From a virus: 12,028 bases of DNA. Of the stretch, positions 1,592 through 11,071 are shown in pieces (positions within the stretch are counted from its first letter, which is position 1; each line of letters starts with the position of its first letter). The notes below the pieces were generated by a model, which was not told the DNA's origin, did not search any database, and worked only from the letters and a program-made list of their open reading frames with translations. Position numbers and translations under genes: made by a program. Location: UHGV virus genome UHGV-0149822; one strand, 5' to 3'.

Positions 1592-3295
<1,704 letters not shown>

Positions 3296-3306
3296 GGAGG
3301 AGTACA

Positions 3307-3471
3307 TTGCTAAGAAAACTTAAAGCTCGCTACCATCGGTTCATGTACAAATGGTGGAGCGATGAAGCAACCTGCCTGTCAAACATTCTAGGAGAACAGA
3401 GGTTCGACTCTAAGGCATGGAAGAAGGCTAACCGGAAGTTTATGTATCACTTCTTGCGTACAGACTTCTAG
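3307..3471 (+). CDS. Candidate small basic Trp-rich protein (about 54 aa) with TTG start; hypothetical
   Basis: Strong SD AAGGAGG (3294-3300) directly follows the gene 4 stop (TAA 3293-3295), with an in-frame TTG 6 nt downstream at 3307. The ORF runs to TAG 3469-3471. The six-frame track opens this frame at 3274 (GTG) inside gene 4. No homology recognised. Confidence 0.3.
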   Translation: MLRKLKARYHRFMYKWWSDEATCLSNILGEQRFDSKAWKKANRKFMYHFLRTDF

Positions 3472-3534
3472 GTCTAGACTCAAGGTCATTCACATAGAGT
3501 GGCCTTTATGATTAGACTAAACGGAGGATTAACC

Positions 3535-3936
3535 ATGTTTGATTGCATTGAGTGGAACGGGTGCCGAGACCGTTTCGGATACGGTATGCGAAAGGTCAAC
3601 GGGAAAGTCCGTAGACTACATCTAATAGCCTTCGAGGAGGCGAACGGTCCGATACCTGAAGGAATGGTCGTGCGACATAAGTGTGACAACCCATCGTGTT
3701 ACAACCCAGCACACTTAGAGCTGGGGACACGGGCCGACAACAATCGTGATAGAGACGTAAGAGGTCGAACCGCTAAGGGAGTGAGGCATGGGAGTTCTAG
3801 GCTTACACCTGAAATAATACAAGAGGCCAAGGTGCTCTACGCAGGAGGTGGATGGACTCACCGCTCCCTAGGTGAGAAGTATGGAGTGGGACACCGCACG
3901 ATAGCTAGAGCAATTGGAGGAGAAACATGGACTTAA
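3535..3936 (+). CDS. HNH homing-endonuclease-like protein with C-terminal HTH-like region (copy 1)
   Basis: HNH motif RHKCDNPSCYNPAHLELGTRADN visible. SD GGAGG (3523-3527) 7 nt before ATG 3535; the track frame opens earlier at GTG 3499. Stop TAA 3934-3936 overlaps the DNA polymerase start by 10 nt. Confidence 0.85.
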   Translation: MFDCIEWNGCRDRFGYGMRKVNGKVRRLHLIAFEEANGPIPEGMVVRHKCDNPSCYNPAHLELGTRADNNRDRDVRGRTAKGVRHGSSRLTPEIIQEAKVLYAGGGWTHRSLGEKYGVGHRTIARAIGGETWT

Positions 3937-6095
3937 GTAACGTATACGGGTCTGACATCGAGACCAACGGTCTCCTTGATACAGTCTCCCAGTTTCACTG
4001 TGGGGTCCTGATTAACGCCGAGTCGAATGAGACCCTTAAGTATGGGGTAGCTCCGATGGTCGGTATCGTCGGTGGCTTCAAAGAGTATGTTCAGAAGGTG
4101 GAAGAGATTGCCGCATCACCTGATGGTATGCTGGTATTCCACAACGGTATCAACTATGACGTCCCTGCTATTGACAAGCTGAAACGTCTGTACTTTGGGA
4201 AACGATTTAACTTCCCGAAACACAAGATGATTGATACCTTGGTGCTCGCCCGCTTGATGTATCCAAACATTAAGTTCTCAGACATGGGCGCGGTGAAATC
4301 TGGTCGTCTGCCACCTAAGATGATGGGACGCCAGTCTCTTGAGGCTTGGGGTTATCGTCTCGGTGAGATGAAAGGTGAATACAAACACGATTACGTTGCC
4401 AAGTGCAAGGCTGAAGGTATCGAATATAAGGCTGGGGACGAATGGTTGTTCCCGTCTCAGGAGATGCTGGACTATAACGTTCAAGACGTTGTGGTCACGC
4501 TGGCGTTGCTCAAGAAGTTCCTGACTGACAAGTATTACTTCCAGTCTGAACAGTTCGCTTTCGACCAGATTTATGCGTTGCGTCTGGAACATGATGCTGC
4601 GTGGACCTGTGCGAAGATGGAACGTAACGGCTATCCGATGAACACCGAGATGGTCGAAGGCTTATATCGTGAACTCACCGTCAAACGTGCAGAGTTGCTG
4701 GACAAGCTGCGTTCGACTTTCGGTAGCTGGTACGCACCAAAGGGAGGCAAGGAGTTCTTCAAGCACCCACGGACAGGCAAGGACCTTCCGAAGTATCCGC
4801 GAGTCGTGTATCCTAAGGTCGGGTCAGTATTCAAGAAGCCGAAGAACAAAGCTCAACGCTTAGGTCTGGAGCCTTGCGAGTTCGACTCACGAGACACAAT
4901 GGAAGGAGCACCATTCACGCCAATAACTTACGTTGAGTTTAATCCGGGAAGCGGAGACCACTTAGCGAAAGTCCTGATGGAGCGTGGCTGGGAGCCTGTG
5001 GACTTCACTGACACCGGGAAACCTGTAGTCGATGACGAGACGTTAGAGCACGTTAAGTTGCCAGACGCAGAGGCTCAGGCTTGCGTAGAGCTGGTCCGTG
5101 AGTATCTGGTAGTCCAGAAGCGCATCGGTCAGGCGGCTGAAGGTAAGAACGCATGGTTGAAACTTGTAGGTCCAGACGGACGTATGCACGGTTCAATCAA
5201 CCCATGCGGGGCAGTAACCGGACGTGCGACTCATAGTTCACCAAACATGGCTCAGGTCCCGGCTAATGGTGCTCCATATGGTGAGATTTGCCGTGGTGCT
5301 TTCGGTGCAGCTTGGAACAAGACGGATGGTACGCCAGACCCTTGGATTCAAGTGGGTGTGGATGCTTCAGGTCTTGAGCTTCGTTGTCTTGGGAACAGAG
5401 CGGCTCCGTTTGATGGTGGTGCATATGCGAAGAATGTGGTCGAAGGTGACATCCACTGGGCCAACGCAGTAAACGCTGGGTTAGCACCTAACGTCCCACG
5501 CGATAAGTCGAGCCACGACCATGATGCTTTCCGTAACAACGCTAAGACGTTCATCTATGCGTTCCTGTACGGTGCAGGGGCCGCTAAGATTGGACTGATA
5601 GTAGGCGGTGGGAAGAAGGAAGGTTCAGCTCTCATGAAGAAATTCATTGAGGGTACACCAGCCATCAAAGACCTCAGGGAAGCTGTGAGCAATACGTTAA
5701 TCTCAGACTCTAAGTGGGTGGACGGTGAGAATATCGTTAAGTGGAAACGCCGTTGGTTGCGTGGACTTGATGGTCGCCGTATCCACATCCGGTCACCGCA
5801 CTCAGCACTGAACGCCTTACTTCAAGGCGATGGTGCGGTAGTCTGTAAGCACTGGATTGTCGAGACTGAACGTATGCTCGAAGAGGCCGGGTATGTTCAC
5901 GGCTGGGAAGGTGACTTTGCGTACATGGCTTGGGTACATGATGAATTGCAGATTGCGTGTCGTACTCAGGAGATTGCTGAAGAAGTCGTCAAGATTGCTC
6001 AGCTTGCTATGCGTAAGGTGGGTGAGTTCTATAACTTTAAATGTGTCCTTGATACCGAAGGTAAGATTGGACCAACGTGGAAGGAGTGTCACTAA
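3927..6095 (+). CDS. gp5: DNA polymerase, family A with 3'-5' exonuclease domain (T7 gene 5 homolog)
   Basis: 722 aa. Exo I motif (SDIETNGL), Pol motif A (GVDASGLELR), motif B (KTFIYAFLYGAG), motif C (AWVHDELQ), and a lysine-rich insertion (PKYPRVVYPKVGSVFKKPKNKAQR) corresponding to the T7 thioredoxin-binding loop. Colinear with T7 gp5 along the whole length. Confidence 0.97.
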   Translation: MDLSNVYGSDIETNGLLDTVSQFHCGVLINAESNETLKYGVAPMVGIVGGFKEYVQKVEEIAASPDGMLVFHNGINYDVPAIDKLKRLYFGKRFNFPKHKMIDTLVLARLMYPNIKFSDMGAVKSGRLPPKMMGRQSLEAWGYRLGEMKGEYKHDYVAKCKAEGIEYKAGDEWLFPSQEMLDYNVQDVVVTLALLKKFLTDKYYFQSEQFAFDQIYALRLEHDAAWTCAKMERNGYPMNTEMVEGLYRELTVKRAELLDKLRSTFGSWYAPKGGKEFFKHPRTGKDLPKYPRVVYPKVGSVFKKPKNKAQRLGLEPCEFDSRDTMEGAPFTPITYVEFNPGSGDHLAKVLMERGWEPVDFTDTGKPVVDDETLEHVKLPDAEAQACVELVREYLVVQKRIGQAAEGKNAWLKLVGPDGRMHGSINPCGAVTGRATHSSPNMAQVPANGAPYGEICRGAFGAAWNKTDGTPDPWIQVGVDASGLELRCLGNRAAPFDGGAYAKNVVEGDIHWANAVNAGLAPNVPRDKSSHDHDAFRNNAKTFIYAFLYGAGAAKIGLIVGGGKKEGSALMKKFIEGTPAIKDLREAVSNTLISDSKWVDGENIVKWKRRWLRGLDGRRIHIRSPHSALNALLQGDGAVVCKHWIVETERMLEEAGYVHGWEGDFAYMAWVHDELQIACRTQEIAEEVVKIAQLAMRKVGEFYNFKCVLDTEGKIGPTWKECH

Positions 6096-6379: not shown

Positions 6380-6585
6380 GTGAATACTTACGGGTCCTAG
6401 CGGCCCTTAAGTCCTGCCCGAAGACCTTCCAGTCCAACTACGTGCGAAACAACGCTGCACTTGTGGCTGAGGCTTCGAGCCGTGGACATCTAAGCTGCCT
6501 GTCTATGGATGGGCGTAACAACGGTGCGTGGGAGATTACCGCTGCTGGCACCAAGTTCCTGAACCAACACGGAGGCTGTCTATGA
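6376..6585 (+). CDS. T7 gp5.7-like small protein (in T7, an inhibitor of sigma-S RNA polymerase)
   Basis: 69 aa, MSEYLRVLAALKSCPKTFQSNYVRNNAALVAEASSRGH...GAWEITAAGTKFL, closely resembling T7 gp5.7 as I recall it. ATG overlaps the upstream stop (ATGA). Confidence 0.7.
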   Translation: MSEYLRVLAALKSCPKTFQSNYVRNNAALVAEASSRGHLSCLSMDGRNNGAWEITAAGTKFLNQHGGCL

Positions 6586-6818
6586 GTGAACTGGATTTAC
6601 TGAAGAAGTTTGACGAGCTTATGTCACTCCTTAATGGTGAAGAGAACTCAATGGCTGAAGAGTTCCGCGAGGCTCTAGCAGCTAAGTTAGACCGTGCCGC
6701 TGATGATAGACTCTGGCGTGAGTGCTTGGCTGGTGGCGGGGTGGACAACTGGTCTGGGTTCTATGAGTCACTGTCTGAAGGTGGATACTACAAGGAGGAC
6801 GACGATGACTTCGAATAA
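6582..6818 (+). CDS. Acidic 78-aa protein at the gene 5.9 position (T7 gp5.9 is a RecBCD inhibitor); function here unproven
   Basis: SD GGAGG (6571-6575) before ATG 6582, which overlaps the gp5.7-like stop (ATGA). The track opens the frame further upstream at 6528. Strongly acidic, ends ...YYKEDDDDFE. Its stop overlaps the gene 6 start by 14 nt. Confidence 0.55.
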   Translation: MSELDLLKKFDELMSLLNGEENSMAEEFREALAAKLDRAADDRLWRECLAGGGVDNWSGFYESLSEGGYYKEDDDDFE

Positions 6819-8805: not shown

Positions 8806-9046
8806 ATCAATCAGTAAGGCATTCAAGAAAGTGGTGAAAAGTACACTAGGGACCGTTGGTCTTGGCTCTGATGACGCGCCTAAGGTTGTTGAGGCTCAGA
8901 CCCCAGCGGCACCAGTGGAAGTACCGAACGACAAAGTGGAGGATGTGGATACTGAAACAACCGCATCTGACGAGAAGAAAGTGAAGCGTTCCGGTAAGCG
9001 TGGCCTTCAGGTCTCTCGCACCTCTGGTGGCGGTATTTCTATTTGA
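8798..9046 (+). CDS. gp7.3-like protein (in T7 a tail-associated protein needed for adsorption)
   Basis: SD AAGGAG (8785-8790) 7 nt before GTG 8798. Lys-rich N-terminus MGKSISKAFKKVVKS and C-terminal ...SGKRGLQVSRTSGGGISI resemble T7 gp7.3 as I recall it. Confidence 0.65.
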   Translation: MGKSISKAFKKVVKSTLGTVGLGSDDAPKVVEAQTPAAPVEVPNDKVEDVDTETTASDEKKVKRSGKRGLQVSRTSGGGISI

Positions 9047-9459
9047 CCGGGTGCATCGAGTGGAAGTGGGCCAAATCCCCTGATGGGTATGGACAGAAGC
9101 GTATAGACGGAAAGTTAGTGTATATGCACCGACTCGCTTACGCCGATGCCTATGGTCCAATACCTGACGGAATGCTCGTCCGTCACAAATGTGATAACCC
9201 CTCATGTTTCAACGTTAACCACTTAGAGCTGGGGACGCAACGTGATAACATGCAGGACGCTTCAAGTCGAGGTAGGATTAACACTACCAAGAAGGCTAGA
9301 GGTGAATCTCAGGGATTATCAGTTTTAACAGAAGACCTTGTTCGAGAAATCCGCAAGTCAACTGTAGGCTGCACGACCTTAGCTCGTGAGCTTGGCGTTA
9401 GTAAGTCTACCGTACTGCGTGTTCGCCAAGGTAAAACATGGAGGCACGTAGATGGCTGA
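9043..9459 (+). CDS. HNH homing-endonuclease-like protein with C-terminal HTH-like region (copy 2; at the T7 gene 7.7 position)
   Basis: HNH motif RHKCDNPSCFNVNHLELGTQRDN. Paralogous to the 3535-3936 protein at protein and nucleotide level. Apparent TTG start at 9043 overlaps the gp7.3-like stop (TTGA); no good SD, suggesting coupled or low-level translation. Stop 9457-9459 overlaps the portal start. Confidence 0.8.
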   Translation: MTGCIEWKWAKSPDGYGQKRIDGKLVYMHRLAYADAYGPIPDGMLVRHKCDNPSCFNVNHLELGTQRDNMQDASSRGRINTTKKARGESQGLSVLTEDLVREIRKSTVGCTTLARELGVSKSTVLRVRQGKTWRHVDG

Positions 9460-9736
9460 ACGTGAAGGATTTGCTGCTGAAGGCGCGAAGGCAGTTTATG
9501 ATAGACTGAAGAACGGTAGACAACCATATGAGACACGCGCTCAGAACTGTGCTTCTGTCACTATCCCGTCACTGTTTCCTAAGGAGTCAGACAACTCGTC
9601 TACGGAATACGTGACGCCGTGGCAAGCTGTAGGTGCTCGCTGTTTGAACAACTTGGCTGCAAAGCTGATGTTGGCGTTATTCCAGAGGCTGCTGCTCGTG
9701 TTGACGAAGGGCTGGCTATGGTCGAGCGTGTGTTGA
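9452..9736 (+). CDS. gp8: Head-to-tail connector (portal) protein, N-terminal fragment (T7 gene 8 homolog); frame terminates prematurely
   Basis: SD GGAGG (9438-9442) before ATG 9452. MAEREGFAAEGAKAVYDRLKNGRQPYETRAQNCASVTIPSLFPKESDN.STEY.TPWQAVGAR.LNNLAAKLMLALF matches the T7 gp8 N-terminus. Similarity stops after F (9680-9682); the frame then reads QRLLLVLTKGWLWSSVC and stops at 9734-9736. Confidence 0.85.
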   Translation: MAEREGFAAEGAKAVYDRLKNGRQPYETRAQNCASVTIPSLFPKESDNSSTEYVTPWQAVGARCLNNLAAKLMLALFQRLLLVLTKGWLWSSVC

Positions 9737-10956
9737 TGGCCTACATGGAGACTAACAGTTTCCGTGTCCCATTGTTCGAAGCTCTGAAGCAGCTTATCGT
9801 CTCCGGTAACTGTCTGCTCTACATTCCAGAGCCTGAACAGGGTACTTATAGTCCTATGCGAATGTACCGCTTAGTGTCCTACGTTGTTCAACGTGATGCT
9901 TTCGGTAACATCTTGCAGATTGTGACTCTCGACAAGGTAGCGTTTAGTGCTCTACCGGAAGACGTGAAGTCTCAACTCAACGCAGACGACTATGAGCCTG
10001 ACACCGAGCTGGAAGTATATACGCACATCTACCGTCAGGACGACGAGTATCTGCGCTACGAGGAAGTGGAAGGAATTGAGGTAGCAGGGACCGAGGGTTC
10101 TTACCCACTGACTGCATGTCCGTACATCCCTGTACGAATGGTTCGACTGGATGGTGAAGACTATGGTCGTTCTTACTGCGAGGAGTATCTGGGAGACCTT
10201 AACTCGCTGGAGACGATTACAGAAGCTATCACCAAAATGGCTAAGGTAGCCTCCAAGGTGGTGGGCCTCGTTAACCCGAACGGTATCACGCAACCTCGTC
10301 GTCTGAACAAGGCGGCTACAGGTGAGTTCGTTGCTGGTCGCGTCGAGGACATCAACTTCCTGCAACTGACGAAAGGTCAGGACTTTACGATTGCCAAGTC
10401 GGTGGCTGATGCTATCGAGCAACGTTTAGGCTGGGCCTTCCTTCTTAATAGTGCTGTTCAGCGTAATGCCGAGCGAGTCACTGCTGAAGAGATTCGTTAT
10501 GTTGCTGGCGAACTGGAGGCGACCTTAGGTGGCGTGTACTCAGTACAGTCACAAGAGCTTCAGTTGCCTATCGTCCGTGTACTGATGAACCAGCTTCAGT
10601 CTGCTGGCATGATTCCTGACCTTCCGAAAGAAGCGGTAGAGCCTACGGTCTCCACTGGTCTGGAAGCTCTGGGCCGTGGTCAGGACTTGGAGAAGCTGAC
10701 TCAGGCGGTTAACATGATGACTGGTCTCCAGCCGCTAGCTCAGGACCCGGACATCAACTTGCCGACCCTTAAGCTGCGACTCCTGAACGCTCTAGGCATC
10801 GACACCGCTGGCCTACTCCTGACGCAAGACGAGAAGATTCAGCGCATGGCTGAGCAGTCGTCTCAACAGGCAGTTGTCCAAGGTGCGTCTGCTGCTGGCG
10901 CTAACATGGGTGCTGCTGTAGGTCAGGGAGCTGGTGAGGACATGGCTCAAGCCTAA
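9619..10956 (+). CDS. gp8: Head-to-tail connector (portal) protein, C-terminal portion in a different frame (T7 gene 8 homolog)
   Basis: From about 9682 (P-E-A-A-A-R-VDEGLAMVERVLMAY...) to the stop at 10954-10956 this frame is colinear with T7 gp8 residues about 105 onward (e.g. YRLVSYVVQRDAFGN, LRYEEVEG, CPYIP.RMVRLDGE.YGRSY.EEYLGDL, GLVNP.GITQPRRL, VTAEEIRYVA.ELE.TLGGVYS, LKLR..NA.GIDT). The first ATG of the ORF (9619) is upstream of where homology resumes. Confidence 0.9.
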   Translation: MASCRCSLFEQLGCKADVGVIPEAAARVDEGLAMVERVLMAYMETNSFRVPLFEALKQLIVSGNCLLYIPEPEQGTYSPMRMYRLVSYVVQRDAFGNILQIVTLDKVAFSALPEDVKSQLNADDYEPDTELEVYTHIYRQDDEYLRYEEVEGIEVAGTEGSYPLTACPYIPVRMVRLDGEDYGRSYCEEYLGDLNSLETITEAITKMAKVASKVVGLVNPNGITQPRRLNKAATGEFVAGRVEDINFLQLTKGQDFTIAKSVADAIEQRLGWAFLLNSAVQRNAERVTAEEIRYVAGELEATLGGVYSVQSQELQLPIVRVLMNQLQSAGMIPDLPKEAVEPTVSTGLEALGRGQDLEKLTQAVNMMTGLQPLAQDPDINLPTLKLRLLNALGIDTAGLLLTQDEKIQRMAEQSSQQAVVQGASAAGANMGAAVGQGAGEDMAQA

Positions 10957-10974
10957 ACTATCACTATAGGAACA
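10952..10974 (+). promoter_or_regulatory. Phage-RNAP promoter (CCTAAACTATCACTATAGGAACA), phi9-equivalent
   Basis: Contains the 18-nt motif CTAAACTATCACTATAGG. Overlaps the portal stop codon and lies 97 nt upstream of the scaffolding gene. Initiating region is GGA rather than GGGA. Predicted +1 G at 10969. Confidence 0.7.
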
Positions 10975-11071
10975 CCGAAAGTAAGAGCGACTAAGTCGAC
11001 CATATGGTAGCCGTTAGTCCCACACTGCAAGTAGGTGTTTACTTATTAACGACTTAAAGGAGAATGACTCA

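Follow-up and report, generated by a model that had tools for sequence, protein, structure and literature searches.

In the viral genome UHGV-0149822 a small HNH endonuclease gene stands just upstream of the essential DNA polymerase gene and runs into its start codon. This locus raises the question of what such a gene is doing there, either as a mobile element in its own right, as a nuclease that serves the phage or as a relic, and of how the polymerase gene tolerates its presence. We consider it likely that it is a free-standing HNH_3 homing endonuclease gene that K1F-like phages carry as a selfish cassette.

An HNH_3 nuclease gene in a K1F-like phage

The stretch of DNA that was analysed, hereafter the window, is 12,028 nucleotides long. 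Gene order and Pfam matches assign it to a T7-like phage of the genus Kayfunavirus (K1F-like), as the region that runs from replication to head assembly. It contains a fragment of endonuclease I, gene 3.01, the amidase, the primase/helicase gene 4 (1595-3295), gene 4.3, the HNH gene and gene 5 (3927-6095), followed by 5.5, 5.7, the exonuclease gene 6, genes 6.5-7.3, a second HNH gene (9043-9459), the portal gene 8 and the scaffold gene 9. In a search with the whole 12 kb the best database match was Citrobacter phage CR44b, with 93.8% identity across 98% of the window, and 199 records covered at least 80% of it. The portal gene of the window genome carries a frameshifting 64-nt deletion at 9682/9683, so that this genome may be defective or poorly assembled. 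Phage promoters were found at positions 1522, 7801, 10952 and 11958. The same search of the window gave no promoter between genes 4 and 5, and therefore the HNH gene has none of its own and is probably transcribed together with the polymerase gene, starting at the 1522 promoter. An Rfam scan, group I introns included, detected no family at threshold anywhere in the window, so that neither an intron nor a known RNA element lies at the junction. A hairpin at 3471-3518 is conserved, with a stability only marginally above that of shuffled sequence (z -1.8).

The HNH gene occupies positions 3535-3936 of the plus strand (the strand of all the features described below for this gene and the polymerase), with its ATG at 3535 and its TAA at 3934-3936, and codes for 133 amino acids. 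The ribosome binding site (RBS) that it uses today is the GGAGG at 3523-3527. An upstream GTG at 3499 was considered as an alternative start and set aside. The gene at the gene 4/gene 5 junction had been described in the initial annotation as a free-standing HNH gene, and the family searches agree. The protein scores 63.2 bits with the Pfam family HNH_3 (PF13392; curated cut-off 24.8, E 1.7e-17), its residues 27-71 aligning with positions 2-46 of the 46 in the profile, and it also matches PHROG 59, 'HNH endonuclease' (E 2.5e-29). This catalytic core (3613-3747) includes His48 (3676-3678), Cys50, Cys55, Asn57, His60 and Asn69 (3739-3741). In an alignment of 68 sequences the invariant columns are C4, H48, C50, C55, N69 and D72, with N57 and H60 conserved in at least 90%, and the window protein keeps every invariant catalytic and zinc residue plus N57 and H60. 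The initial annotation had allowed that the HNH motif could prove inactive on alignment; it is intact, with the catalytic His/Asn pair and the Cys/His zinc ligands of HNH_3 all in place. The beta-beta-alpha-metal fold is likewise present, and the AlphaFold2 model of the protein is confident (mean pLDDT 90.4). Residues 92-127 (3808-3915) form a C-terminal three-helix helix-turn-helix DNA-binding domain. The dN/dS ratio of the gene was 0.08 against phage CLB_P1 (dS 0.47), 0.03 against CHX131 (dS 1.4) and 0.04 against BDX03P1, for which dS is saturated.

A PDB sequence search with the HNH protein returned no match to any chain at E values up to 1, and the comparison with known structures had therefore to be made at the level of the fold. 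I-HmuI from Bacillus phage SPO1 (PDB 1U3E) has the same arrangement, a beta-beta-alpha-metal nuclease at the N-terminus and a helix-turn-helix at the C-terminus, although the sequence identity is 16-20% and its chain has 174 residues versus 133 here. I-HmuI is encoded in an intron and nicks one strand, whereas the gene described here is free-standing and its product may nick or cut both strands. Taken together, sequence and model indicate that this is an intact, selected nuclease with an I-HmuI-like layout.

The closest known gene is 7.7B of CR44b (CDM21552.1), the direct counterpart of the HNH gene. It is found at the same position, with 99.0% nucleotide identity and one amino acid different, and likewise overlaps gene 5 by 10 nt. 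Its annotation reads '7.7B, predicted homing endonuclease' and includes a helix-turn-helix prediction. Nothing of substance separates the two genes beyond three substitutions private to the window (3557, 3624 and 3735). Counterparts of 7.7B are also found in phages phiYIO1-1, 101118UKE1, EPr2 and CLB_P1. Public annotation thus already covers the gene, the family to which it belongs and its likely role, and free-standing homing nucleases beside conserved phage genes are textbook knowledge that will not surprise the specialist. Our literature searches brought up no experiments on this gene, none on what HNH_3 nucleases target in T7-like phages, and no report of cleavage, nicking or homing by the protein or a close relative. 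What is added here is the exact anatomy of the junction and the representation of all the stages of a homing cycle at one site.

Anatomy of the junction with the polymerase gene

The stop of the HNH gene had been reported to overlap the polymerase ATG by 10 nt, and the overlap is exactly that (3927-3936). In the alignments, the likeness to genomes without the HNH gene stops on the left after ATGTTTGA (3535-3542), which lines up with the start of the polymerase gene in those relatives, and restarts on the right at GGGTCTGAC (3948). The HNH-less relatives carry an identical GGAGGATTAACC-ATG, which in them serves to start translation of the polymerase itself. In K1F, IME177, EcoDS1, YZ1, GA2A and IMEP24 the polymerase start reads ...CGGAGGATTAACCATGTTTGACCTTAAG..., and the HNH-less junction runs ...CGGAGGATTAACC ATG TTT GAC CTT AAG AGT ATC TGG GGT TCT GAC ATC GAG... 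The HNH-less polymerase begins MFDLKSIWGSDIE, with the N-terminus MFDLKSIW, but MFDLKDIW in K1F and IMEP24. In the genomes that carry the gene, it is the nuclease (MFD-CIEW...) that opens with the former RBS, ATG and TTT of the polymerase. The diverged nuclease of BDX03P1 opens instead with TAGGAGACATT ATG ATT GAC, a sequence with which, in SH5-type phages, the polymerase starts (MID...). The RBS and the second codon therefore co-vary with the local polymerase type, MFD going with GGAGGATTAACC and MID with TAGGAGACATT.

An insertion in frame after codon 3 of the polymerase was considered and rejected. Distant members of the nuclease family also start with M-x-D/E-C-I-E-W, and hence Asp3 is native to the nuclease; the only parts assignable to the polymerase at the left end are the RBS, the ATG and codon 2.

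At its other end the nuclease gene finishes with ATT GGA GGA GAA ACA TGG ACT TAA and supplies a new start for the polymerase. Its Gly-Gly-Glu codons contain the replacement polymerase RBS, GGAGGAG (3916-3922), which is kept in the HNH-carrying relatives examined, as GGAGGTG in BDX03P1. The new polymerase ATG is formed from the Thr-Trp codons of the conserved C-terminal G-x-T-W of the nuclease. From there the polymerase reads ATG GAC TTA AGT AAC GTA TAC GGG TCT GAC (MDLSNVYGSD), the replacement start and recoded N-terminus, MDLSNVY, being the first seven codons, ATG GAC TTA AGT AAC GTA TAC (3927-3947). Eight codons (MFDLKSIW) have thus been exchanged for seven, leaving the polymerase one residue shorter. 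All the alleles with the nuclease, including one that is only 74% identical, encode MDLSNVY with synonymous differences, which argues for a long co-evolution of this segment with the nuclease. The N-termini of the polymerases consequently differ systematically between Kayfunavirus genomes with and without the gene.

The polymerase itself is uninterrupted (3927-6095, 722 amino acids, Pfam DNA_pol_A E 7.2e-36). The right junction lies two codons upstream of its Asp10 (3954-3956) and Glu12 (3960-3962), which belong to a conserved D-I-E motif and which, by alignment, we take to be the Exo I residues Asp5 and Glu7 of T7 gp5 (MIVSDIEAN). The HNH gene has its own stop codon and is out of frame with the polymerase, and so does not have the layout of an endonuclease encoded in an intron or intein. 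Since the expression of the polymerase is preserved, the overlap renders the insertion nearly harmless, and it ties the start signals of the polymerase to the 3' end of the cassette. The annotation of the window is thereby settled, with the HNH gene starting at the ATG at 3535 and the polymerase at 3927, its N-terminus coming from the cassette.

Distribution, transfer and decay at the site

The initial annotation had called such genes typically mobile and had proposed that relatives should be compared at the junction for presence or absence of this one. Among 223 phage records with a match across the gene 4-gene 5 junction, only 13 hold the gene, about 94% being without it. These 13 records correspond to some ten distinct phages (CR44b, phiYIO1-1, 101118UKE1, EPr2, CLB_P1, T147P5, ST17, CHX131, Bas105 and BDX03P1). 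Most of the other records listed cover 74-75% of the 1601-nt query, which means that some 400 nt are missing. The gene is therefore far from universal, and its presence is sporadic, at one defined site and with precise boundaries, as for homing genes. The same distribution, together with a location in the replication module between 4.3 and gene 5 and not beside the terminase genes, speaks against a terminase-assisting HNH protein of the HK97 gp74 type, which would be needed for cos cleavage.

Other genes have entered at this junction as well. GA2A has a C5 DNA methylase there and R1 a gene of the Endonuclease VII family (PF02945, E 1.4e-24) that likewise overlaps the polymerase ATG; these two inserts mark the junction as a favoured insertion site. 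In IMEP24 and SH5 an ORF of about 190 amino acids, function unassigned, is found between genes 4 and 5. A similar polymorphism is known from another place in the genus, since in the Kayfunavirus Hafnia phage Ca a 397-bp HNH gene is present or absent within one lysate (PMC8861465). There too the TAA overlaps the ATG of a downstream essential gene, in that case the large terminase, although that locus lies before gene 19 and the allele is a different one (PMC8861465). The stand-alone nuclease genes SegF, SegG and MobE of T4 and F-CphI of cyanophages (PMC6083498), which act by intronless homing, are also comparable, as they stand beside conserved essential genes, are sporadic among close relatives and have sequence differences in the adjacent gene that are linked to their presence. 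However, the Seg proteins are GIY-YIG nucleases and F-CphI belongs to Endonuclease VII, whereas the nuclease here is HNH_3. Furthermore, those genes are intergenic, while the cassette described here extends into the beginning of the neighbouring coding sequence, whose RBS, ATG and first codons it replaces.

The divergence of the gene does not follow that of its surroundings. Against CR44b, 101118UKE1, EPr2 and phiYIO1-1 the HNH gene has 4-5 differences in 402 nt (98.8-99.0% identity), compared with 92.7-93.9% for the rest of the window. Over the neighbouring 450 nt of polymerase sequence, phages that carry the nuclease do not group together; the window is nearest to IME177 and YZ1 and 101118UKE1 is nearest to EcoDS1, all three without the gene. 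Some other 200-nt windows are also 98-100% identical in single comparisons, these phages being mosaic in general. The gene has therefore moved independently of its flanks, with general mosaicism as an alternative vehicle. These data show transfer of the cassette but, because the phages are mosaic anyway, say nothing by themselves about the nuclease as the driver of that transfer. No co-conversion tract was demonstrable in the polymerase gene, where the 450 nt downstream are not clustered by presence of the nuclease; such a tract could not be made visible because the low-divergence stretch at 3948-4090 is conserved in all relatives.

It is at this point that a domesticated or beneficial nuclease, moved by general mosaic recombination and not by self-promoted homing, has to be weighed. 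Such a protein might, for example, cut the polymerase gene of co-infecting competitors or degrade host DNA. The low dN/dS (0.03-0.08) over saturated synonymous divergence and the constant locus would fit this explanation, as would the dependence of the polymerase start signals on the 3' end of the HNH gene, and the mosaicism along the window is widespread enough for ordinary recombination to move the gene. However, some 94% of the related genomes do without it, the gene is far more alike between phages than its flanks, and there are decayed alleles and precisely excised sites, described below. We thus consider this explanation unlikely. Interference competition is in any case compatible with homing, and partly the two are one mechanism seen from the side of the phage.

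Decayed alleles at the junction were found in two metagenome contigs (L019 and L020). One has a 40-nt internal deletion together with a change of Cys50 to Trp (C50W), and the other has lost the catalytic core by a deletion of about 150 nt. Both of them retain the polymerase RBS, the ATG and MDLSNVY. A further state is seen in phages Milel, Bia and TM1, which match the recoded MDLSNVY start and have no match to the HNH gene. Two of these were aligned; in Milel the recoded start directly follows the original RBS (GGAGGATTAACC-ATG-GAC-TTA-AGT), and TM1 has one C fewer. As judged from the alignment, this allele would be the expected product of recombination between the similar RBS-ATG repeats GGAGGATTAACCATG and GGAGGAGAAACATG, although it could instead be an ancestral resistant allele and not a loss. 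The site thus presents intact, decayed and recoded HNH-less alleles, as in a cycle of invasion, decay and loss. The sequences suggest that all the stages of the homing cycle are represented here, from empty sites and intact genes to decayed alleles and losses that keep the recoded start. The mobility proposed by the initial annotation is thereby supported by the presence of the gene in 13 of 223 records, its precise boundaries, 99% identity versus about 93% in the backbone, and the decayed and excised sites.

The gene of the window might itself be one of the inactive forms, carried because the polymerase needs its 3' end. Decayed alleles do exist in other genomes, the portal gene of this genome is frameshifted, and the private change at 3557 is non-synonymous, replacing Thr8 by Asn. 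Nevertheless, the ORF is full length with all the invariant residues intact, this is the one amino-acid difference from the CR44b protein, and position 8 lies outside the conserved columns. An inactive relic is on these grounds improbable, and we continue with the gene as an intact homing cassette.

The second HNH gene and the predicted homing cycle

Gene 7.7, at 9043-9459 on the plus strand, is a second HNH_3 gene in the window. It is a paralogue of the first (42% amino-acid identity, E 2e-38), and its counterpart in CR44b is also gene 7.7. Its TTG start overlaps the stop of gene 7.3, and its 3' codons supply a GGAGG for gene 8 (ATG at 9452). It stands in place of 14 nt, TAAGGAGGTGACGA, between genes 7.3 and 8, and the first 45 nt of gene 8 have synonymous differences that track its presence. 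Like the first gene it is sporadic, with only 8 database records holding at least 80% of it, and in GA2A, ST31 and Pipis the slot is filled by other HNH alleles. HNH proteins of this gene 7.7 type are known in Studiervirinae (13a gp7.7, Vi06 7.7 and gene 7.7 of the window). They share with the protein at gene 5 the HNH_3 domain, the size, an N-terminal M-x-D/E-C-I-E-W and a C-terminal G-K-T-W, and their genes are also small, free-standing and packed against the next essential gene. On the other hand, the amino-acid identity is only about 42%, they precede portal gene 8 and not gene 5, and, unlike the gene studied here, they leave the N-terminus of the downstream protein unaltered.

The two genes had been described as sharing a 17-nt exact match and a core of 75-80% nucleotide identity. 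The 17-mer, CACTTAGAGCTGGGGAC, is indeed found exactly twice in the window, at 3712-3728, where it forms the codons His-Leu-Glu-Leu-Gly-Thr, and at 9220-9236, both on the plus strand; by our own arithmetic about 0.004 such pairs would be expected in random sequence of this length. The level of identity of the core also stood, at 80% (66/83) between 3646-3728 and 9154-9236, with the similarity ending at 3728 and 9236. The limits first given for it (3647-3733 and 9154-9240) are one base out of register and, taken literally and ungapped, give 25% identity. No significant nucleotide similarity was found between the two genes outside this core. Among the degenerate codons for identical core residues, 9 of 22 differ synonymously by our own count on the alignment, so that the likeness of the cores reflects retention by two old family members and not a recent duplication. 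At the 17-mer site the second copy of CR44b reads CACTTAGAGTTAGGAAC, with four synonymous differences; the 17-mer is not a conserved feature and is confined to the allele pair of the window. As read from the sequences, the nucleotide likeness arises because the two genes belong to one family and encode a common catalytic core (GPIP-G-VRHKCDNPSC-N--HLELGT).

The initial annotation had also proposed that the two copies could act as repeats for recombination or deletion, and this part is not upheld. An exact 17-mer within 83 nt of 80% identity, in direct orientation, might seem suited to delete or rearrange the 5.5 kb between the copies. However, a genome with this deletion would lack the polymerase, the gene 6 exonuclease and genes 6.5-7.3 and would not be viable. 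The deletion is absent from the five near-full-length relatives that were aligned pairwise, and the 12-kb search gave no sign of it. Given also the variation of the 17-mer in CR44b and the lack of similarity along the rest of the two genes, we regard this role as extremely improbable.

Returning to the homing cassette, the cycle could proceed as follows. In a mixed infection, the nuclease would nick or cut the HNH-less allele at or near the junction. It would probably recognize the conserved 5' end of the polymerase gene, a target that is predicted only from the position of the insertion, the candidate region on HNH-less DNA lying around ATGTTTGACCTTAAG...GACATCGAG. Carrier genomes would be shielded from their own nuclease by the insertion and the recoded codons. 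The recombination machinery of the phage would then repair the break from the genome with the gene and copy the cassette in, as in intronless homing.

A more specific version, which we advance tentatively and find somewhat less probable than its opposite, is that the cassette is fused to the translation start of the essential gene, taking over the RBS and ATG of the polymerase and encoding a replacement RBS, ATG and N-terminus, and that immunity, too, is determined by the recoded codons. If so, one segment of 20 nt would do three jobs, namely the expression of the polymerase, the protection of the carrier, and the restriction of clean loss to recombination between the RBS-ATG repeats, as in Milel and TM1. 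This would provide a compact and testable model of how free-standing homing genes can be nearly free of cost. It could also explain why unrelated nuclease families are found at the 5' end of gene 5, HNH_3 here and Endonuclease VII in R1.

For the phage-therapy genomes of the genus, a recurrent difference of 400 bp in presence or absence is explained as harmless. T7-like phages are easily crossed and engineered, and the locus is a convenient natural system for the study of intronless homing or interference competition in them.

Altered alleles of the HNH gene and polymerase starts without it

Decayed versions of the HNH gene (window 3535-3936) were found at the same site in two Logan contigs from SRR14630139 and SRR18080418 (L019 1501-1797 and L020 1501-1755). 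One of these alleles carries a 40-nt deletion together with a Cys50Trp substitution, and in the other a deletion of about 150 nt has taken out the catalytic core. Both alleles retain the ribosome binding site (RBS), the ATG and the recoded MDLSNVY start of the polymerase gene. A different kind of alteration was found in phage phiYIO1-1 (L006 859-1293), in which, owing to a 33-nt in-frame tandem duplication, GEKYGVGHRTI stands twice within the helix-turn-helix region, and this may weaken DNA binding.

The MDLSNVY start is also present in two HNH-less phages, Kayfunavirus Milel (L017, OX460914) and TM1 (L018, MT808983), where it lies directly behind the original RBS, around position 900 of both loci. 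The junctions of Milel and TM1, the two phages covered by this comparison, differ by one base; phage Bia (OX460967) also matched the cassette-type start. Alleles of the Milel/TM1 type could represent either precise losses of the HNH gene or an ancestral resistant allele.

Sequence upstream of the HNH gene

Just 5' of the shared RBS there is a hairpin with an internal loop (window 3471-3518), which is conserved across the aligned relatives. Its form recalls a T7-type RNase III processing site, but its stability is only marginally above that of shuffled sequence (z -1.8). In phage BDX03P1 (L008) a 12-nt insertion about 70 nt upstream of the HNH start creates CTATCACTGTAGGATAG, similar to the phage promoter core CTATCACTATAGGGA and located just 5' of both hairpin and HNH gene.

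HNH genes at other positions and the broken portal gene

Additional HNH_3 genes were detected in relatives outside the gene 4/gene 5 junction, in positions 5' of gene 4 and immediately 3' of gene 5 (L014 1627-1992 and 6528-6809, from phage EPr2, and L013 6191-6472). Furthermore, the polymerase gene is split in K1F and in CLB_P1, the latter with an annotated HNH gene inside the split gene, whereas that of the window is uninterrupted. Another presence/absence difference among the relatives is a 226-nt segment (window 6591-6816) inside the ORF 6528-6818, absent from CR44b and 101118UKE1 and found in EPr2 (97.5% identity over 6601-6800) and CLB_P1 (86.5%).

The second HNH gene of the window, gene 7.7 (9043-9459), follows the same design as the one preceding the polymerase. 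Its TTG start overlaps the stop of gene 7.3, its 3' end provides the RBS of portal gene 8, and the start region of gene 8 (window 9452-9500) shows synonymous differences, over its first 45 nt, that track the presence of gene 7.7. At least 80% of gene 7.7 was found in only eight database records, and in GA2A, ST31 and Pipis the slot is filled by other HNH alleles. Compared with CR44b, 101118UKE1 and phiYIO1-1, gene 8 itself (window 9452-11020) is missing 64 nt at 9682/9683. The resulting frameshift splits it into ORFs 9452-9736 and 9619-10956, and this genome is either defective or mis-assembled.

Other cargo at the gene 4/gene 5 junction

In phage vB_EcoP-R1 (OQ703102) the same junction is occupied by a nuclease gene unlike the HNH gene, a member of the Endonuclease VII family (L011 841-1272, E 1.4e-24), and its stop likewise overlaps the ATG of the polymerase. 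Over the following 750 nt the R1 polymerase gene shares only 84.6% identity with the window, while most K1F-type relatives show 93-97% identity over the next 450 nt, a difference that suggests a long imported tract in R1. Phage GA2A has a C5 cytosine DNA methylase gene (L009 869-1741) inserted immediately 5' of the polymerase, which keeps the unchanged MFDLKSIW start behind this insert. The junction therefore accepts non-nuclease cargo as well.
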